A stretch of DNA of 64,000 nucleotides from Candidatus Marinacidobacterales bacterium (GTDB taxonomy: Bacteria; Acidobacteriota; Vicinamibacteria; Marinacidobacterales; DATDRI01). Position numbers and translations under genes: made by a program. Location: NCBI GenBank assembly GCA_965219415.1, contig CBDCNP010000002.1, positions 1,600,001 to 1,664,000 of the forward strand, given 5' to 3'. This document shows, one piece after another, positions 847 to 35,523 of this stretch; position 1 is the first letter of the stretch; every line of letters begins with the position of its first letter. Under the pieces are notes generated by a model, which searched no databases, was not told where the DNA came from, and worked only from the letters and a program-made list of their open reading frames with translations.

Positions 847-1914
847 ATGGCGACCACCAAAGCCAAGACCCTGAGTTGGAAGTTCAAGCCGCTCGATCCC
901 GAGATGGATCGCACCGAGCTCGACCCCGGCTCTCTCACCTTGTCCCGCGAAGAGCTCCTCAAGCTCTACCGGGCGATGCGCATGAGCCGGACGTTCGAGC
1001 ACCGACTCGCGTCGCTCTACCGCCAGGGCCGCGTGGTGGGGGCCGTCTACCTGGGAATGGGCCAAGAAGCCATCTGCACCGGCGTCACGAGTCTTCTTAA
1101 TAAGGATGACTACTTCAACACCATCGGCCGAAACCTGGGCGCATGGTTCTACCGCGGCGTCGAGCCCAAGCACGTCCTCGCCCGCTGGCTCGGAAAAGAC
1201 GAGCAGCCTTGTCACGGTCGGGACCTCGGGCTCTTTCTCGCCGATCTCAATAACTTCGGCATCGCCCCCTATCACAATGGCTCGATGGCTTCGTGGATTC
1301 CGTCCGGCGCGGGCTTCGCGCTTGCCTTCAAGATGCGGAAGGAGCCGCGGGTCTACGTCGCTTTCACCGGAGACGGTGCCACCAGTCCGGGAGATTTCTA
1401 CGAGGGGCTCAACTTTGCCGCCATTCACAAACTACCGCTCGTCGTCATCGTCGAGAACAACTATTTCGGCTATTCGACGGGTAACGAACGACAGATGCCG
1501 GTCGAAAACGTCGCCGACCGGGCACCCGCTTTCAAAATCCCGCATCAGATCGCCTTCGGCAATTGCATCTTCACCGTCATCGAAGTCGCTAAACGCGCCA
1601 TCGACTACGCGCGCTCCGGCAAGGGCCCGTACCTGGTGGAATTCAAGACCTTTCGTCAGCGCGGACACGGTGAGCACGACGACGCATCCTACGTTCCCAA
1701 AGAAATGCGCGAGTATTGGGAAGCGCGGGATCCGGTCGACCTCTACACCAAATACCTCCTCGGCAAGGGTGGCTTCACCCAAGAAGAGATCGATGCGATC
1801 GATGCCGATTGCAAGAGCATCATGGACGAAGCCGTCGAATACGCGGAGGCCCTACCCTATCCCGACCCGAGCACCGTGACCCAAGGGCTCTTCGCTCCCC
1901 GAGAGACATCGTAA
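847..1914 (+). CDS. 2-oxoacid dehydrogenase E1 alpha subunit (TPP-dependent)
   Basis: GQEA, GDGA...NN TPP motif and GHGEHDD loop. Start moved to ATG 847 after GAGGAG. Confidence 0.93.
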   Translation: MATTKAKTLSWKFKPLDPEMDRTELDPGSLTLSREELLKLYRAMRMSRTFEHRLASLYRQGRVVGAVYLGMGQEAICTGVTSLLNKDDYFNTIGRNLGAWFYRGVEPKHVLARWLGKDEQPCHGRDLGLFLADLNNFGIAPYHNGSMASWIPSGAGFALAFKMRKEPRVYVAFTGDGATSPGDFYEGLNFAAIHKLPLVVIVENNYFGYSTGNERQMPVENVADRAPAFKIPHQIAFGNCIFTVIEVAKRAIDYARSGKGPYLVEFKTFRQRGHGEHDDASYVPKEMREYWEARDPVDLYTKYLLGKGGFTQEEIDAIDADCKSIMDEAVEYAEALPYPDPSTVTQGLFAPRETS

Positions 1915-28714: not shown

Positions 28715-29506
28715 TTACACCGAAGAGACAGACGTCTGCTCCAGCATCTTCTTCACTTCATCGAAGAGCAAGCCATTGGTGCTGATGGCGTCGCCACCAT
28801 ATATGCTCGCCTTGCCGTCCCAGTCGGTAAAGGTGCCGCCCGCTTCTTCGAGGATGGGCACCAGGGCAGCACAGTCCCAAGGTTTCATGAGCGGGTCGAG
28901 CATCACCTCGGCTCGCCCGGTCGCGACCAAACAATGGCCATAACAGTCACTCCAACCGCGTTGGAGGCGTGACGCCGCCTTGATACGATCCCAAAAGGCC
29001 CGGGTACGCTCGTCTTCGAGGGTCGCTACTTCGGTATGAGCAACCAATGCCTCTTCGATGCGCGATACGCGAGATACCCTTGCGAGCCGGCCGTTCCACC
29101 GGCACCCCTCGCCCTTGGCGGCGGAGACCGTTTCTTGCAGCCCTGGGAAGTGAGCCACTCCGACGACTACCTCGCCGGCAACCTCGAGCCCTATCAACAC
29201 TCCATAGAGAGGAACCCCTCGGATGAACGACTGGGTGCCGTCGATGGGGTCGATGATCCAGCGATGCGACGAGTCCTTATCCGCCTCACCGAACTCCTCG
29301 CCCAACACAGCGTGATCCGGGAAACGGTGAGCAATGAGCTCTCGGAGCAGCCTCTCCGCCCCCTGATCGGCGGCCGTCACCGGGGACTCATCCTCTTTCC
29401 ATTCAACGTCGACCCCGGTTTGAAAGTGCGCGAGGGTGAACTGACCGGCCTGCCAGGCGGCATCCATGGCGAAATCGAGGAACTCACGATTAGTGATGGG
29501 CGGCAT
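28715..29506 (-). CDS. hisN: Inositol monophosphatase family, histidinol-phosphatase-like
   Basis: SPVTAAD, GEEFG, WIIDPIDGT, PWDCAA. Confidence 0.75.
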   Translation of the reverse strand: MPPITNREFLDFAMDAAWQAGQFTLAHFQTGVDVEWKEDESPVTAADQGAERLLRELIAHRFPDHAVLGEEFGEADKDSSHRWIIDPIDGTQSFIRGVPLYGVLIGLEVAGEVVVGVAHFPGLQETVSAAKGEGCRWNGRLARVSRVSRIEEALVAHTEVATLEDERTRAFWDRIKAASRLQRGWSDCYGHCLVATGRAEVMLDPLMKPWDCAALVPILEEAGGTFTDWDGKASIYGGDAISTNGLLFDEVKKMLEQTSVSSV

Positions 29507-29809
29507 CTATGTTTCTTCGAACAGTTCTCGCCGACCGACTTCGCCCTTCGGGCTTCGTCGAGTCTCGCCGAAGCGACGCATAGGCGGAAGTTTCAGCGCA
29601 CGCGGACACCACAGCATATTCCGGGACGCGCTATTTTCCAAAGGCCTGGTGGAGCCCCCGCCCCCCCTCCAACTGGCACCGCCTGGTTTGGGAGCGCGCT
29701 CTTTGACCCCCTCACCGCGCAGTGTTAAGAATGGCTGGAGCCGGTCTTTCTGAAGCCGGTGTGAGGCTTTTCATAGGCCGGAACAGGCTGGCCTTGTAGA
29801 TTGCGAACG

Positions 29810-30544
29810 ATGGCATCGGAATCCGCCCTCATCTTGTTTACGCTCTCACCCGAAGCGGAGGGCCGCCGGAAGCCGCTCGGCCTAGGAAGGCCTGAGCGTG
29901 CCGCCGATGTGTTCGCGGTCCTTTTCGAGCACCTGGAGAACGTTTGTAGCGGGCTCCACGATGTAGATCTCCTCATCGCCACCCCGAAGCCTTTTAGAGA
30001 TTCGCGGCGGCATTACCTCCCACAAAGGGGCCGGAGCTTCGGAGACTCGCTACGACTGGCGGTCGACGATGCCTTTTCGCTCGGCTACCGACGCGTGGTG
30101 GTCATTGGCAACGATTCTCCGGAGATCTCGCGCCGCTATCTGGAGGACGCGTTCGACGCCCTAGCCTCGTCAGGACCTCGGGCGGCGGTGCTCGGTCCGG
30201 CCAAGGACGGTGGATACGCCTTGCTCGGACTCACGACACCTTGCCCCGAAGCCTTTGCAGCCATGCCCTGGGGGTCGTCGCGTGTTGCGCACCTCACCCA
30301 AGCGCGGCTGGTCGAAAGTCATTTTGTGGTCGAAACACTTCCCGCGCTCGAGGACATCGACGACCGACGCGGGCTAACTCGCTTCCTAACACGCGCACGA
30401 CTCGGATGGCTCGCCCGGCTCGCCCGGCGGATCATAAATCTCCTGCTCCCCGAACCGACCTGCCAAAGAACGACCGAAGGCCACTGGCGGAAGATTTTCC
30501 TTGCCGGGTGGCTCCCCCTCCGCGCTCCGCCTTCCACAACTTAG
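29810..30544 (+). CDS. DUF2064 / TIGR04282-like transferase (CofC-like fold) ending in RAPP
   Basis: QRGRSFGDSL, VIGNDSP, LGPAKDGGYALLG, DIDD; lacks the usual N-terminal KxP..KTRL. Confidence 0.85.
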   Translation: MASESALILFTLSPEAEGRRKPLGLGRPERAADVFAVLFEHLENVCSGLHDVDLLIATPKPFRDSRRHYLPQRGRSFGDSLRLAVDDAFSLGYRRVVVIGNDSPEISRRYLEDAFDALASSGPRAAVLGPAKDGGYALLGLTTPCPEAFAAMPWGSSRVAHLTQARLVESHFVVETLPALEDIDDRRGLTRFLTRARLGWLARLARRIINLLLPEPTCQRTTEGHWRKIFLAGWLPLRAPPSTT

Positions 30545-30600
30545 CCTCACGCCAATTTCTCCAATCTCGGATAACGCCCGCCCTGCGCGGGGAGGATTTT

Positions 30601-31812
30601 ATGTCTGGAAAACGAATTGCGATCATCGGTGCGGGTCCCGTCGGCCTCGAAGCCGCCCTTCACGGCCTGTCCCTGGGCCATCGCGTTCAGGTGTACGAAC
30701 GGGGAACCATCGGCGAGAACATGAATCGATGGGGTCATGTGACCCTCTTTTCATCCTGGGAGCTCAACCATTCCGAACTCGGAGCGAAGACCCTTCGGGG
30801 CGCCGGCCGGCCCCTACCCGCACCGGGGGAGTATTTGACGGGAAGGCAGCACGTGGAGAGATATCTCCGGCCCCTGGCCGACACCGACGCGCTGAGAAAG
30901 TGCATTCGAGAGGAAGTCGAAGTGCTGTACGTCGGGAGAGACGGTATCGGCAAGAAAGATTTGATCGGTGGTCCTCGGGAGCGTCATCCCTTTCGCATTC
31001 TGCTCGAGCGGGAACAGGGCGAAGAAATCGCCGAGGCAGACGTCCTGATCGATTGTTCCGGAACCTATGGCAATCACAACTGGATGGGCAACGGTAACAT
31101 CCCGGCTTTGGGCGAACTAGAGCTCGGCGGACAGATCGCCTACACGTTGCAGGACCTCCTCGGCGAGAAACGCGAGCAGTACTCGGGGCGACGCGTGCTT
31201 CTCATCGGCAGCGGACACTCCGCCGCCACGGCGCTCGAGGCACTCACCCAACTACCAGACACATCGGTCACCTGGATAGCCCAAAGCGCCGAGCAGAATC
31301 CCCTGTCTGTTTTCCCCAACGATCCACTTCCGGAAAGAGACCGGCTTTCCAAGAAGGCAAACGAGCTCGCCAGAGGCGGGGCTCCTCGGGTCGCGTACCG
31401 TCCTGCAACTCTCGTCGAGCGTGTGACGCGCCAGGCAGGATCATTTGCCGTCGAGCTCCGCGCGATCGAGACCGATCGCCGAGAGACGGTCACAGTGGAT
31501 CGCATCCTGGCCTATGTGGGCTACCACCCGGACAATCGAATCTATCGGGAGCTCCAGATGCATGAGTGTTATGCGTCGATGGGACCGATGAAGCTTTCGG
31601 CCGCTCTTCTAGGATCGAGCTCGGCAGATTGCCTCGCCAATGAGTCCCACGGGGCCGATGTCTTGACGAACCCGGAACCGAATTTCTTTGTCCTCGGCTC
31701 GAAGAGCTATGGCAAGAACTCGAACTTCTTGATTCGGATCGGGCTCGAGCAAGTTCGAGAGGTCTTCAGCTCCATCGAAAAAACGACCGCCGTGGATCAG
31801 TACGCATCATGA
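30601..31812 (+). CDS. FAD/NAD(P)-dependent oxidoreductase (flavin monooxygenase type seen near ars genes)
   Basis: GAGPVG, WGHVTLFSSW, GSGHSA, HECYAS, PEPNFFVLGSKSYG. Confidence 0.85.
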   Translation: MSGKRIAIIGAGPVGLEAALHGLSLGHRVQVYERGTIGENMNRWGHVTLFSSWELNHSELGAKTLRGAGRPLPAPGEYLTGRQHVERYLRPLADTDALRKCIREEVEVLYVGRDGIGKKDLIGGPRERHPFRILLEREQGEEIAEADVLIDCSGTYGNHNWMGNGNIPALGELELGGQIAYTLQDLLGEKREQYSGRRVLLIGSGHSAATALEALTQLPDTSVTWIAQSAEQNPLSVFPNDPLPERDRLSKKANELARGGAPRVAYRPATLVERVTRQAGSFAVELRAIETDRRETVTVDRILAYVGYHPDNRIYRELQMHECYASMGPMKLSAALLGSSSADCLANESHGADVLTNPEPNFFVLGSKSYGKNSNFLIRIGLEQVREVFSSIEKTTAVDQYAS

Positions 31813-32714
31813 CCACCCATACTGCCGAAGCTCCGCCGCGTGTCGCCTTGAGTGCGCTCGACGACCTGTGGTTCCAAGTCTCTGGAACACTCTGCAATCT
31901 CACCTGCGCCCATTGCTTCATCTCTTGCAGTCCAACCAACCACGCGTTCGAGCTCATGGACCTCGAAGCCATGAAGCGCCTCCTCGAGGAATCGAAGGCG
32001 TTGGGGGTCAAGGAGTACTACTTCACCGGCGGAGAGCCCTTCATTCATCCCAATATGGTCGAGGTCCTAGAGGCCACCCTTTCGATCGGCCCAGCCACCG
32101 TCCTGACGAATGCCACGGTGATAAAGCCCCAGCACGCGGAGCGTCTCGCCGCCGCCGAGGCGCGATCGCCCTATTCGCTCGAGTTTCGCGTCAGCATCGA
32201 TGGGTACTCCCCGGAGATGAACGACCCCATCCGAGGGGTAGGAACGTTTCGCAAGGCCATGGATGGCGTTCGACTCCTACTGGCGCATGGGTTCCTCCCC
32301 ATCATCACCGTGGCCCAAACCTGGGAAGATGGTCGAGACGACGAAGTCTTTCAGCGTTTCGTCGAAGTACTGAGGATGGAAGGCTATTCCCGTCCCCGGA
32401 TCAAAATCATTCCGCCTCTGCGTATCGGTGCCGAAGAAAATAGGTCGCGCTCTTACACCGATACGGAGCGGGTGACATCAGACATGATGTCGGGTTTCGA
32501 CACCTCACAACTCATCTGCTCCCACAGTCGTATCGCCACCGATCGGGGCGTGTACGTCTGTCCGATCCTCATCGATTCGCCAGAGGCGAAGATGGGAGCT
32601 ACCCTGGCCGAATCGGCCGAACCTTATCCTCTCAAGCACGGTGCCTGCTACACCTGTTACGTGGGGGGCGCTATCTGCAGCAATCTGAGCTCGGGAGGCC
32701 GAGATGTCTCTTGA
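31809..32714 (+). CDS. Radical SAM protein with Cys-rich C-terminal domain
   Basis: CNLTCAHC, TGGEPF; C-terminal C, CPIL, HGACYTC, C. ATGA overlap with the upstream gene. Confidence 0.92.
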   Translation: MTTHTAEAPPRVALSALDDLWFQVSGTLCNLTCAHCFISCSPTNHAFELMDLEAMKRLLEESKALGVKEYYFTGGEPFIHPNMVEVLEATLSIGPATVLTNATVIKPQHAERLAAAEARSPYSLEFRVSIDGYSPEMNDPIRGVGTFRKAMDGVRLLLAHGFLPIITVAQTWEDGRDDEVFQRFVEVLRMEGYSRPRIKIIPPLRIGAEENRSRSYTDTERVTSDMMSGFDTSQLICSHSRIATDRGVYVCPILIDSPEAKMGATLAESAEPYPLKHGACYTCYVGGAICSNLSSGGRDVS

Positions 32715-33507
32715 GCGCTACGAACGGATCGCGGCCATCGGTGGCGTCTACAGCAACCACCTTGCGCTCGAGGCCGCGGTGAACGACGCGCAACGGCGAG
32801 GAGTGGACGCGATCTTCTGTCAGGGCGACCTCGGCGCCTTCGGCCCCAGCCCGGACAAGGTTTTTCCGATTCTGATGGATGCGGGTGTCCAGGTGATGCA
32901 GGGCAATTACGACAATTCGATCGGCGCAGGGCTTGCCGACTGTCAATGCGGCTACGTCGATCCCAGAGACAACCACTTCGCAAAGCTCTCTTATGACTAC
33001 ACGTTCGCCAACACGTCCGACCGTTGGAAAGCATGGATGCGCGAGCTACCGGGGTCCATTCGCATTCAACTGGGAAGCCATCGACTGCTGATGAGCCACG
33101 GTTCGCCCCGTAAGATGAACGAGTTTCTGTGGGAGTCGACGACGCCCACTCACTTCTTAGACCGTTTGCTCCAGGAGCACCAGGCCGACGTCGTGCTCAC
33201 GACCCATACCGGCATTCACTGGAAACGTGAGGTTCCAGGAGACCGACACTTCGTCAATGTGGGAGTGATCGGACGCCCGGAGAACGATGGCAACACGCAT
33301 GTCTGGTACACCATCCTGGATGCGCGGAAGGGCCGGAAAGGGTTGACCGTCGAGTTCGTCCCCCTCGAATACGACCACCGAAGTCTCGCCCAGGAAATGG
33401 CTAGCGAGGGACTGCCCCAGGAGTTCATCGACACCGTTCTCACCGGATGGTGGACGACGTGCCTGGAGATTTTGCCTTCAAAGGAACGTAAACGAGGCAA
33501 GTTCTAG
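32704..33507 (+). CDS. Atypical calcineurin-like metallophosphoesterase
   Basis: GD, GNYD, HGSP and THTG retained; DxH replaced by GGVYSN; CQCGY motif. Confidence 0.82.
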   Translation: MSLERYERIAAIGGVYSNHLALEAAVNDAQRRGVDAIFCQGDLGAFGPSPDKVFPILMDAGVQVMQGNYDNSIGAGLADCQCGYVDPRDNHFAKLSYDYTFANTSDRWKAWMRELPGSIRIQLGSHRLLMSHGSPRKMNEFLWESTTPTHFLDRLLQEHQADVVLTTHTGIHWKREVPGDRHFVNVGVIGRPENDGNTHVWYTILDARKGRKGLTVEFVPLEYDHRSLAQEMASEGLPQEFIDTVLTGWWTTCLEILPSKERKRGKF

Positions 33508-33568: not shown

Positions 33569-34732
33569 ATGTCAAGCGATTCGAATGTTGAGCACGCTGT
33601 CAAAGACCGCTACTCGAAGGCGGCTTCCGCGAAGGAAGACGCACTTTGCTGTCCCGTCGAATGCGAAGAACGCTTCCTCGACGTTCTCCCGAATGAGATT
33701 TTGGAGCGGGACTACGGGTGCGGCGACCCCTCCAAGCACCTCCAGCCGGGCGAGACGGTCCTCGATCTAGGAAGCGGTGGGGGCAAGATTTGCTACATCG
33801 CCGCCCAAGTCGTCGAAAGGGAGGGTAAGGTCATCGGCGTCGACACGAACGATGAGATGCTCGACCTGGCTCGACGCTACCGTCAGGAGATCGGCGATCG
33901 GCTCGGCTACCACAACGTCGCCTTTCACAAAGGCAAGATTCAGGACCTTGCCCTCGACTATGGAAAGCTCGAGCAATACTTGGCCGAGCATCCAGTTACC
34001 ACCGCAACGGAGCTAGAAGCGCTAGAGAGCTGGAAGGACGACCAACGGCGAAACCACCCGATGGTCCCCACGGCGTCGGTCGACGTCCTGGTAAGCAACT
34101 GCGTGCTGAACCTAGTCCGGCCCCAGGACAAGACCGAGCTCTTTCGAGAGATGCATCGCGTCCTCAGGAAAGGCGGTCGGGTCGTGATCTCGGACATTGT
34201 GAGCGATGAGGACGTGCCGGCTCACCTTCAAGTCGATGCGGAGCTTTGGAGTGGCTGTCTTTCTGGTGCCTTTCGCGAGGATGGCTTCCTGACCGCCTTT
34301 GAAGAGGCGGGATTTTACGGCATCCAAGTATTGAAGCGCGACGACAAGCCATGGCAGACGATAGAGGGCATCGAGTTCCGCGCGGTAACCGTCGAGGCCT
34401 ACAAGGGGAGAGAGGGACCATGCCTCGAACGCCACCAGGCGGTCATTTATAAGGGGCCCTGGCGCAGCGTGACCGACGACGACGGCCACACTCTGTTCCG
34501 AGGCCAGCGCATGGCAGTCTGTGACAAGACCTATCGCGTCTATAGCTCTGAACCCTACCGGGGCGCGATCGAGCCGGTAGAGCCATACGAAGACACTCCC
34601 TTATCGGAAGCGACTCCGTTCAATTGCCGGAAAGACACGGTACGACATCCGAAGGAGACCAAGGGGACGGAGTACAACGTTACCGAAACGACCGACGCGC
34701 CCTACTGTGGGCCGGATGGAGACTGCTGTTGA
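33569..34732 (+). CDS. arsM: Arsenite S-adenosylmethionine methyltransferase-like, long form
   Basis: CCP, YGCGDP, LDLGSGGG, SNCVLNL, WSGCLSGA; Cys-rich C-terminus (..CGPDGDCC). Confidence 0.8.
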   Translation: MSSDSNVEHAVKDRYSKAASAKEDALCCPVECEERFLDVLPNEILERDYGCGDPSKHLQPGETVLDLGSGGGKICYIAAQVVEREGKVIGVDTNDEMLDLARRYRQEIGDRLGYHNVAFHKGKIQDLALDYGKLEQYLAEHPVTTATELEALESWKDDQRRNHPMVPTASVDVLVSNCVLNLVRPQDKTELFREMHRVLRKGGRVVISDIVSDEDVPAHLQVDAELWSGCLSGAFREDGFLTAFEEAGFYGIQVLKRDDKPWQTIEGIEFRAVTVEAYKGREGPCLERHQAVIYKGPWRSVTDDDGHTLFRGQRMAVCDKTYRVYSSEPYRGAIEPVEPYEDTPLSEATPFNCRKDTVRHPKETKGTEYNVTETTDAPYCGPDGDCC

Positions 34733-34774: not shown

Positions 34775-35523
34775 GTGATTCTAGCTGCCCTACTCATCGC
34801 CGGGGCGCTGTTTGTGGCCTATGCCAACGGCGCCAACGACAACTTCAAGGGAGTCGCGACCCTCTATGGAAGCGGCACCGTCGGGTACCGAGGTGCTCTC
34901 GCGTGGGCCACGCTTACTACGTTTGCGGGGTCGCTCTGCTCGGTGTTGCTCGCCGAGAAGCTCGTAAGAATTTTTTCCGCGAAAGGTTTGGTCCCGGAAT
35001 CGGTCGCGGGAACGCCCGAGTTCCTCGCTGCGGTGGCACTCGGAGCCGCTCTCACGGTATTCTTGGCGACCCTCCTCCTCTACTAGACGCAGGACACTTT
35101 CTCAGCGCGGGCGCGGTGAGTTTTGCGCGAGGGTTGAACGACGCACCGAAGATCGTAGGGCTGATGTTTGTGCTCGAGGCCCTAAGCGTACGAACGAACC
35201 TCTTGCTGGTCGCCACGGTCATGGCGGTAGGAGGTCTCCTCCAAGCGCGGAAAGTAGGAGAGACAGTCGCTCATCGAATTACGCGGATGAATCACGCTCA
35301 AGGCTTCGTCGCCAACCTCGTCACGTCTTGCCTCGTGCTCACAGCCAGCGCGAGCGGACTACCCGTTTCCACGACTCACGTGTCTTGCGGATCTTTTTTC
35401 GGAATCGGCCTAATCACCGAGCAAGCCAACGTTGGGGTTATCCGGCAAGTCGTGTCGTCCTAGCTCCTGACACTTCCACTCGCAGCGGTCCTCGCCGGCG
35501 TCGCCAGTCTAGTCTTGAGCTAG
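34775..35523 (+). pseudogene. PiT-family phosphate/anion permease with internal deletion (~35080) and TAG at 35461
   Basis: GANDNFK in the first frame; GLNDAPK and PVSTTH in the second; SS*LLTLP corresponds to the family SW..TLP. Confidence 0.82.

Follow-up and report, generated by a model that had tools for sequence, protein, structure and literature searches.

Ribosome arrest at an Arg-Ala-Pro-Pro (RAPP) or Arg-Gly-Pro-Pro (RGPP) core near the end of a nascent chain is described, in the portions of the published accounts on which we draw here, for CruR of Bordetella pertussis, for ApdA and ApdP, and for a set of proteins of Streptomyces lividans. In CruR, the stall blocks Rho and keeps the downstream genes on, release having been proposed to occur via ligand-induced co-translational folding (PMC9426467), and translation arrest by this peptide was shown by Fujiwara et al. 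(EMBO J 2025; PMC12992588). In the latter work, saturation mutagenesis of ApdA and ApdP found the Arg and the first Pro of RAPP to be irreplaceable and the change of Ala to Gly to be fully permissive or to strengthen the arrest, and the RAPP stall was resistant to EF-P. The same study reports that in many phyla no four-residue words are excluded more strongly than RGPP and RAPP, that they are enriched near the C terminus of proteins of less than 300 residues encoded upstream of diverse genes, and that all seven S. lividans proteins with a C-terminal RAPP or RGPP arrested translation, one of them lacking a localization signal. Here we describe a gene of a DUF2064 subfamily in a 64,000-nt stretch of DNA from a Candidatus Marinacidobacterales bacterium (the window, G000:C3:1600001-1664000, G000 being the source genome). 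This gene encodes an enzyme-fold protein that ends in RAPP, and it is followed by genes for a flavoprotein, a radical SAM protein, a metallophosphoesterase, and an ArsM-like methyltransferase. The comparative data make it probable, in our judgment, that the motif belongs to an arrest module carried by a folded cytoplasmic enzyme and that this module gates the downstream flavoprotein, radical SAM, and ArsM genes.

Conservation of the C-Terminal Motif

The protein ends in ...FLAGWLPLRAPPSTT*, with three codons between RAPP and the stop, as had been read in an initial annotation of the sequence (WLPLRAPPSTT*, RAPP codons 30521-30532). That annotation had called for the conservation of RAPP to be examined in homologs, and conservation indeed held: R(A/G)PP is the sole invariant element of a variable, disordered tail. 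A survey of 55 genomes of the order, in which an unpublished genome (G007) was entered as having no ortholog, found orthologs in 11 genomes including G000, and the motif is kept in all 10 of those from the 54 other genomes, nine times as RAPP and once as RGPP, at 3-7 codons from the stop in tails that otherwise diverge. Among database homologs, taken as the 69 best of 120 listed matches in a search of 5.8 billion proteins, 63 carry the motif at the C terminus (58 RAPP and 5 RGPP), followed by 1-8 residues; the other six comprise two proteins that stop within the domain, two partial matches, a divergent sequence, and one with WQLPPP in place of the motif. Beyond residue 189, only R238, P240, and P241 are invariant in a 40-sequence alignment, A239 is replaced by Gly only, and residues 213-237 do not contain a single conserved column.

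We then have a wider view from a profile search of 1.84 billion representatives of 50%-identity clusters, made with a profile that contains the RAPP columns. At least 64 of the best 150 clusters examined have a C-terminal R[AG]PP (38 RGPP and 26 RAPP), on tails that are otherwise unrelated, and the unconserved residues that follow the motif number up to 12 among these representatives. The distance from the D(I/L)D motif of the domain to the Arg is 56 residues in 41 of the 63 homologs (range 47-66) and 47-65 across the 64 clusters; as these alignments indicate, the tail is variable in sequence and constrained in length. The codons of the motif vary synonymously between lineages (Arg CGC, CGT, CGG, or AGA; first Pro CCG or CCT; second Pro CCT, CCC, or CCG), and selection therefore acts on the peptide, so that RAPP is, by this comparison, under strong peptide-level selection. 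No C-terminal R[AG]PP was found at any of 94 canonical DUF2064 loci (a count that includes L014 of G007). The named holders of the motif are Acidobacteriota, namely Candidatus Marinacidobacterales metagenome-assembled genomes, Acidobacteria bacterium Mor1, and Vicinamibacteria, and one motif-bearing cluster includes Membranihabitans maritimus, which we take to be a member of the Bacteroidota. The subfamily occurs in 2 of 401 genomes sampled evenly across the Acidobacteriota phylum.

The two words are rare in the proteins of this organism. In G000 open reading frames (ORFs) of at least 300 aa, RAPP was seen 7 times vs. 35.2 expected (0.20) and RGPP 4 times vs. 30.9 expected (0.13), while the controls AAPP (44 vs. 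41.2, 1.07) and KAPP (16 vs. 15.4, 1.04) were not depleted; the ORF set is mechanical and crude, and the false ORFs in it would, if anything, inflate motif counts. The natural variation found here, A or G only, is the set permitted in the ApdA/ApdP mutagenesis. As for the ORFs of known arrest peptides, the protein is shorter than 300 residues (244 aa), the motif stands 3 residues from its end, and a same-strand gene lies 56 nt downstream. The main text of PMC12992588 does not contain the terms TIGR04282, glycosyltransferase, arsen, or oxidoreductase; its supplements (Appendix Fig. S2-S4 and source data) may list the family.

Two side observations concern related motifs. A second group of tailed DUF2064 proteins, accounting for 21 of the best 150 clusters, ends in [WF]Q[KLI][APS]PP (for example WQKAPP, WQLPPP, WQKPPP, or FQKAPP), its distance to the domain being the same as for R[AG]PP (53-62 residues for 18 of the 19 proteins measured); its members are P0136, P0138, P0139, P0142, P0151, P0156, P0164-P0166, P0173, P0178, P0179, P0183, P0184, P0199, P0204, P0209, P0214, P0215, P0224, P0236, and P0073, and this ending could either stall ribosomes as another proline-based motif or be a docking motif common to both groups. 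In addition, five other mechanical ORFs of G000 have RAPP or RGPP 5-17 residues from the C terminus [C3:4840162-4840866 (-), C3:406556-407005 (-), C3:866096-866758 (-), C1:263136-264035 (-), and C3:637820-638218 (+)], three of which have no Pfam match and two of which resemble gene fragments (LonC helical and Bmp).

Fold of the DUF2064 Protein and Its Tail

PF09837 (DUF2064) is the sole Pfam match of the protein, at 92.2 bits vs. a gathering threshold of 25.8. TIGR04282 scores 114.1 bits, under its cut-off of 134, and covers residues 28-186. This match begins only at profile position 23, and the N terminus reads LILFTLSPEAEGRRKPLG in place of the canonical AKxPxPGxVKTRL (FTLSPEAEGRRKPLG across the subfamily), confirming the earlier remark that the usual KxP..KTRL motif is missing. 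An AlphaFold2 model computed from the 40-sequence alignment has a mean predicted local distance difference test score (pLDDT) of 90.1 and places the fold at residues 1-212, with 10-residue blocks at 92-98 up to residue 210, save for 79 at residues 61-70. The model is a soluble alpha/beta domain that begins with a strand at residues 5-10. Its best structural match in Foldseek is the cytoplasmic DUF2064 protein 3cgx (E 1.5e-17), followed by the FbiD/CofC guanylyltransferases 7p97 and 6bwh (about 1e-8). The GNDxP, DGGY, and DxD motifs are kept in the alignment. D102, D133, D182, and D184 are invariant, because of which the protein is probably a working enzyme and not merely a sensor. No signal peptide or membrane segment is seen in the AlphaFold2 model, no dedicated signal-peptide predictor having been run, and the protein sequence has no CXXC and in this respect does not resemble DUF2946.

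The tail that follows is predicted to be disordered and unpacked against its own domain, its pLDDT blocks being 70, 46, 54, and 67. With Pro240 in the P site, 28 residues would lie between the end of the last helix and the peptidyl-transferase center, a distance close to the span of the exit tunnel and to the linker length that lets a folding domain exert force on an arrest peptide in published force-profile work. G000 also has a second, more canonical DUF2064 paralog [C3:193201-193602 (+)], with 34% identity over residues 72-208. Among the papers listed by literature searches on this family, none was related to it by title and abstract.

C-Rich Stretch and Rho

Starting 10 nt before RAPP, a 78-nt stretch (30511-30588) is composed of 49% C and 15% G, a C-G difference of 0.33 that is not reached by any of the coding-strand windows sampled from G000 (95th percentile 0.141, 99th percentile 0.192). 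The equivalent window has a C-G of 0.13-0.33 in all 15 loci and is at or above the 95th percentile in 11, and in 11 of the 15 the gene-wide maximum of C-G is located between -41 and +8 nt relative to the stop. In the window's own locus, the first 40 nt past the stop have C 0.45 and G 0.12, a poverty in G that is not found in all loci. Rho is present in G000 (725.8 bits vs. a cut-off of 509). In the C>G stretch that crosses the end of the ORF into the spacer, and in the presence of Rho, the present case resembles CruR-type shielding from Rho. On these compositional grounds, CruR-like Rho shielding fits the comparative data at least as well as masking of the Shine-Dalgarno sequence (SD), and we favor it over unmasking of the SD as the candidate output of a stall.

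RNA Structure Around the Shine-Dalgarno Sequence

The initial annotation had proposed that codons of the RAPP region mask the SD of the flavoprotein gene. The two 11-mers it had singled out, CCCCTCCGCGC at 30515-30525 and the SD-containing GCGCGGGGAGG at 30585-30595, can pair as described, with 9 Watson-Crick pairs, 1 G-U pair, and 1 mismatch. The masking itself is not supported: it is not predicted in the window RNA, it is predicted in 4 of 15 loci only, and it is no better than in synonymous recodings. The fold of the region, a check that the annotation had suggested, is no better than that of shuffled sequences (30490-30620, z = +0.82, with 159 of 200 shuffles as good), and neither is a second fold of the region (z +1.01). 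The minimum free energy structure of the 131-nt region 30490-30620 pairs the SD with 30491-30511 and not with 30515-30525. Computed for the window RNA in a 170-nt context, the probability of pairing between the SD window and the RAPP/footprint region is 0.01, the main partners of the SD window being the local CCCGC/GCGGG hairpin, named as a competitor in the annotation, and a CCUC just after the stop. Over the 15 loci, the probability of SD-footprint pairing is 0.50-0.83 in four (L002, L004, L034, and L035), 0.20-0.36 in three, and at most 0.09 in eight.

To place the stalled ribosome, we took the register from the CruR, ApdA, and ApdP toeprints, as given in the portions of PMC12992588 used here, which would put codon P240 (30527-30529) at the P site and codon P241 (30530-30532) at the A site. 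The expected footprint, 30512-30542 (-15 to +15 from the first base of the P site), ends at the stop codon and served as a folding constraint. Its span rests on the usual size of a ribosome footprint. When the footprint was forced open, the unpaired fraction of the SD in the window went from 0.25 to 0.19, that is, the SD was not freed, and little change was seen across the 15 loci. For comparison with chance, the ten codons around RAPP were recoded synonymously 2000 times per locus with G000 codon usage: at the window's locus (L001), 19.5% of the recodings match or beat the real SD duplex (the annotation had itself cautioned that GC-rich pairing can arise by chance); values of at most 0.05 were obtained only at L009 (0.009) and L112 (0.036), and values above 0.68 at 4 of the 15. 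Any sequence that encodes Leu-Arg-Ala-Pro-Pro is C-rich and pairs with a G-rich SD. As a selected feature, the anti-SD pairing was rejected on the thermodynamic folds, the stalled-footprint constraint, and the synonymous-recoding null.

For the Ala of RAPP (30524-30526 in the window), 12 loci use GCU and 2 use GCA, GCC and GCG being absent from this place, and the RGPP locus has GGU; in long G000 ORFs, GCC and GCG make up 75% of Ala codons and GCU and GCA only 26%. With about 8 lineages behind the loci, this bias is only suggestive, and could reflect tRNA choice or a constraint at the level of the mRNA. A hairpin 5' of the SD is seen in single-sequence folds of 13 of the 15 loci, with an energy beyond that of shuffles (at most 0.05) in only 2 of the 15, and an alignment of 13 of the 15 loci with MAFFT and RNAalifold (L006 and L115 being omitted as having no CCGC-type stem) gave no hairpin consensus. 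Its core is CCGC...GCGG, and its stems differ by lineage (CCCGC, CUCCGC, UCCGC, AUCCGC, CCCC, and ACGAC); a pause hairpin, a stabilizer of the mRNA 5' end, and a protein site are all possibilities for it. The spacer of the closest relatives (L002, L111, and L003) has an insert of 35-50 nt with its own hairpin (cgccgaagcc..cgaaggcg), within the first ~45 nt after the DUF2064 stop, which is absent from the window's locus and from L112.

Gene Order and Features of the Locus

A same-strand flavoprotein gene follows the DUF2064 gene intact in 14 of 16 loci, and a same-strand gene or its remnant in all 16. The spacer is 44-164 nt long in the 15 loci with a placeable start, and the genes downstream overlap one another. 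The distance from the expected stall to the start is 71 nt in the window, 70-126 nt in 14 of the 15 loci, and 188 nt in L006. In L004 and L114, most of the flavoprotein gene and the radical SAM and phosphoesterase genes have been deleted, leaving a flavoprotein remnant of 42 or 20 codons ahead of the ArsM-like gene [in L004 at 1293-1421 (-)]; RAPP, SD, and hairpin are retained in both, despite the deletions. In the window, whose GC content is ~60%, the DUF2064 gene is the first of its unit, because the upstream neighbor is on the minus strand; a clearly divergent upstream gene is seen only in the f1 clade, the other orthologs being ambiguous through GC-rich shadow frames. The spacer between the DUF2064 and flavoprotein genes has no intrinsic terminator and no second promoter match, and a search of 29400-30800 against Rfam found no family. 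Two ORFs that overlap in different frames [34775-35086 (+) and 34903-35463 (+)] come immediately behind the ArsM-like gene; they match the PHO4 phosphate-transporter family at profile positions 1-81 and 200-337, and may represent a frameshifted or degraded transporter gene.

Table 1. Positions of the genes, protein segments, and candidate signals of the DUF2064 locus, numbered from the first nucleotide of the window
Feature	Position	Strand	Basis or remark
Inositol monophosphatase family gene, upstream neighbor	28715-29506	-	Opposite strand to DUF2064 gene
Sigma-70-like promoter match TTGACC-18-AAGAAT, upstream of DUF2064 gene	29703-29732	+	Consensus match only; 1 site vs. 0.2 expected in shuffles
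DUF2064-subfamily gene, 244 aa + stop	29810-30544	+	PF09837, TIGR04282, Foldseek 3cgx
CofC/FbiD-like alpha/beta domain, residues 1-212, last helix 202-212	29810-30445	+	AlphaFold2
Disordered C-terminal tail, residues 213-244	30446-30541	+	AlphaFold2, alignment
C>G stretch over RAPP codons, stop, and most of intergenic region; candidate Rho loading site	30511-30588	+	Composition
RAPP codons CGC GCT CCG CCT (R238 A239 P240 P241)	30521-30532	+	Sequence
Small hairpin CCCGC-CCUGC-GCGGG adjoining SD (CCCGC 30577-30581, GCGGG 30587-30591)	30577-30591	+	Single-sequence folds
SD (GGAGG) of flavoprotein gene	30591-30595	+	5 nt ahead of ATG at 30601
Flavoprotein gene, pyridine-nucleotide-disulphide oxidoreductase type, 403 aa	30601-31812	+	PF13738, PF07992
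Radical SAM gene, 4-nt overlap with flavoprotein stop	31809-32714	+	PF04055; best NCBIfam match Rv1681 family, below cut-off
Metallophosphoesterase gene	32704-33507	+	PF12850
ArsM-like S-adenosylmethionine (SAM) methyltransferase gene	33569-34732	+	NF040538 328.8 bits, below cut-off 500; PRK11873 185 bits

Discussion

From the conservation of the motif, the disorder of the tail, the gene order, the C>G stretch, and the presence of Rho, we infer a stall, its release, and an effect on the downstream genes, according to the following model. The acquired module would be a tail of ~30 residues, disordered and ending in Arg-Ala-Pro-Pro three codons before the stop, on which the ribosome would stall when the codons for Pro240 and Pro241 occupy its P and A sites, respectively. 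By then, the exit tunnel would be occupied by residues ~213-240, and the domain, otherwise complete, would have its last helix (202-212) at the tunnel mouth; docking of this helix, perhaps aided by a ligand or a partner, may pull on the chain and release the stall. Until then, the parked ribosome would cover ~30512-30542 and keep the operon on, in the favored version by shielding 30511-30588 from Rho as shown for CruR, or alternatively by remodeling the RNA structure around the SD. The uniform length of the tail, as judged from the alignments, agrees with the idea of an arrest switch whose nascent-chain part is an enzyme-fold domain. In its fullest form, the model would have the catalytic domain of a multi-phylum DUF2064 clade serve as its own force-generating sensor and the tail as a tunnel-length ruler, folding, maybe stabilized by a substrate or an arsenic-type metabolite, freeing the stall and setting the expression of an organo-arsenic-type operon; we hold this extension to be tentative and, as a whole, somewhat doubtful.

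Several observations weigh against a gating arrest module. RAPP alone is insufficient for arrest in ApdA and ApdP, where the upstream tunnel segment matters, according to the portions of PMC7897499 and PMC12992588 drawn on here, and this segment is variable in the present proteins. There is no signal peptide or membrane segment, as far as the structural model indicates, unlike in nearly all known RAPP peptides. The 64 clusters are a minimum count and not a frequency, as a search with the RAPP columns in its profile is bound to enrich the best-150 list for the motif. The background for C-G comes from G000 alone and the loci represent about 8 lineages; C-G is only modest (0.13-0.15) in 6 of the 15 loci and is partly forced by the Pro and Ala codons. 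Finally, L004 and L114 indicate that any regulated target would not be the flavoprotein alone.

Other explanations of the motif have to be set beside the gating module. RAPP/RGPP could be a short linear motif that acts after translation by docking on a partner or on the enzyme's own active site, any pausing being incidental. A docking peptide would likewise look like a short conserved stretch that closes a disordered tail of uniform length, and the [WF]Q[KLI][APS]PP group has K or L in place of R, which is unexpected of an ApdA/ApdP-type core. Yet docking would require keeping the two words that are most excluded from bacterial proteomes and are also depleted in G000; the variation is limited to A and G, with no K, S, or T in 63 proteins; the model shows no packing of the tail against its domain; neither the identity nor the number of the residues behind the motif is conserved; and the motif persists in L004 and L114, so that the flavoprotein, the radical SAM protein, and the phosphoesterase are not obligatory partners. 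We find docking unlikely on this balance. Alternatively, the RAPP stall might uncover the flavoprotein SD, otherwise paired via 30585-30595 with 30515-30525 (CCCCUCCGCGC), in the style of SecM-secA. The 11-nt pairing exists and is probable at four loci, the stall-to-start distance is SecM-like, and the choice of GCU or GCA for Ala keeps a CUCC/CCUCC element in the motif despite the 26% usage of these codons in G000. Against these points stand the pairing probability of 0.01 in the window RNA, an SD that is not freed by opening the footprint, folds no better than shuffles, and the recodings, 19.5% of which pair at least as well as the real sequence at L001, with only 2 of 15 loci at or below 0.05. 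Nor did Sakiyama et al. (PMC7897499) find SD-sequestering hairpins for ApcA, ApdA, and ApdP, and we regard SD unmasking as distinctly unlikely.

The stall could also be real and serve the enzyme alone, by giving time for folding, cofactor loading, or co-translational assembly, with no effect downstream. The spacer of 28 residues would set the stall just as the domain has emerged, and the four invariant aspartates point to a working enzyme, both of which suit this account; what it leaves aside is that the gene comes first in its unit, always with a same-strand gene past a spacer of at least 44 nt while the genes further downstream overlap, and that the C>G stretch is conserved. In addition, the RAPP peptides characterized in the cited work, as far as the portions of PMC12992588 and PMC9426467 used here describe them, are all regulatory, and we judge a purely self-serving stall very unlikely. 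Lastly, RAPP might have arisen by chance in a gene of high GC content, given that proteins encoded at 60% GC are rich in R, A, and P. The rate at which R[AG]PP is expected within the last ~12 residues of a protein is, however, ~1e-4 to 1e-3, vs. 63 of 69 homologs and at least 64 clusters; chance is already ruled out by the conservation, and its probability is practically nil.

If the stall of the gating module is real, it would provide a natural system for testing if a cytoplasmic domain can release a programmed arrest by folding or by binding a ligand, as well as a regulatory handle on an uncharacterized ArsM/radical SAM gene cassette. If the folding-sensor reading were true as well, the locus would be a natural cytoplasmic counterpart of arrest-peptide force assays and would answer the question raised in PMC12992588 of the source of a pulling force outside of protein export. 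RGPP, the most excluded four-residue word in bacterial proteomes according to the portion of that study used here, is the commonest C-terminal motif among the best 150 clusters of the clade.

Compared with known proteins, the subfamily shares its fold and its GNDxP, DGGY, and DxD motifs with canonical DUF2064/TIGR04282 proteins (3CGX) and with CofC/FbiD. The canonical proteins have ~200-215 residues, the AKxPxPGxVKTRL N terminus, and neither tail nor motif, in contrast to the FTLSPEAEGRRKPLG N terminus and the tail found here. Among arrest peptides, SecM of Escherichia coli (with secA downstream) resembles the present gene in that a core belonging to one structural class (RAGP in SecM) is separated by a few codons from the stop and the next SD lies tens of nucleotides downstream; in the SecM case, a stem-loop has been demonstrated to sequester the SD until the stalled ribosome disrupts it (PMC7897499, in the portion drawn on), whereas no such structure is supported here, and its export-driven release is inapplicable to a cytoplasmic domain. 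The Sec/YidC monitors (SecM, MifM, VemP, ApdA, and ApdP) have an N-terminal signal peptide or membrane segment, which is not seen in the DUF2064 protein. ApdA, ApdP, and the seven S. lividans peptides are alike to it in that their R-(A/G)-P-P core lies close to the end of an ORF shorter than 300 residues with a same-strand gene downstream, in tolerating A or G, and in the variable segment before the core (PMC7897499, PMC12992588). They differ in being small secretory or membrane proteins (one S. lividans protein having no signal) that are Sec/YidC monitors or suspected metal or redox sensors, and none is described in the main-text parts of PMC12992588 as an enzyme-fold domain, although its supplements may list the family.

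The closest parallel is CruR (Bp2923, DUF2946), which is likewise encoded by the first gene of its operon, has RAPP exactly 3 residues before its C terminus, and shows a C>G stretch that crosses from the end of its ORF into the spacer (PMC9426467, in the portion drawn on). CruR is a poorly structured exported peptide of ~145 residues with a CXXC copper site, whereas the present gene encodes a folded cytoplasmic enzyme domain of 212 residues, from an unrelated family and with no CXXC, ahead of an operon of the arsenic/radical SAM type in which Rho may play a role. In the present case, the RAPP/RGPP core is carried by a full-size soluble enzyme, the known ones being small exported or membrane peptides that monitor secretion or, as suspected, metals, and the clade bearing it, as delineated by the sequence searches, spans at least 64 clusters and at least two phyla with a spacer of constant length.

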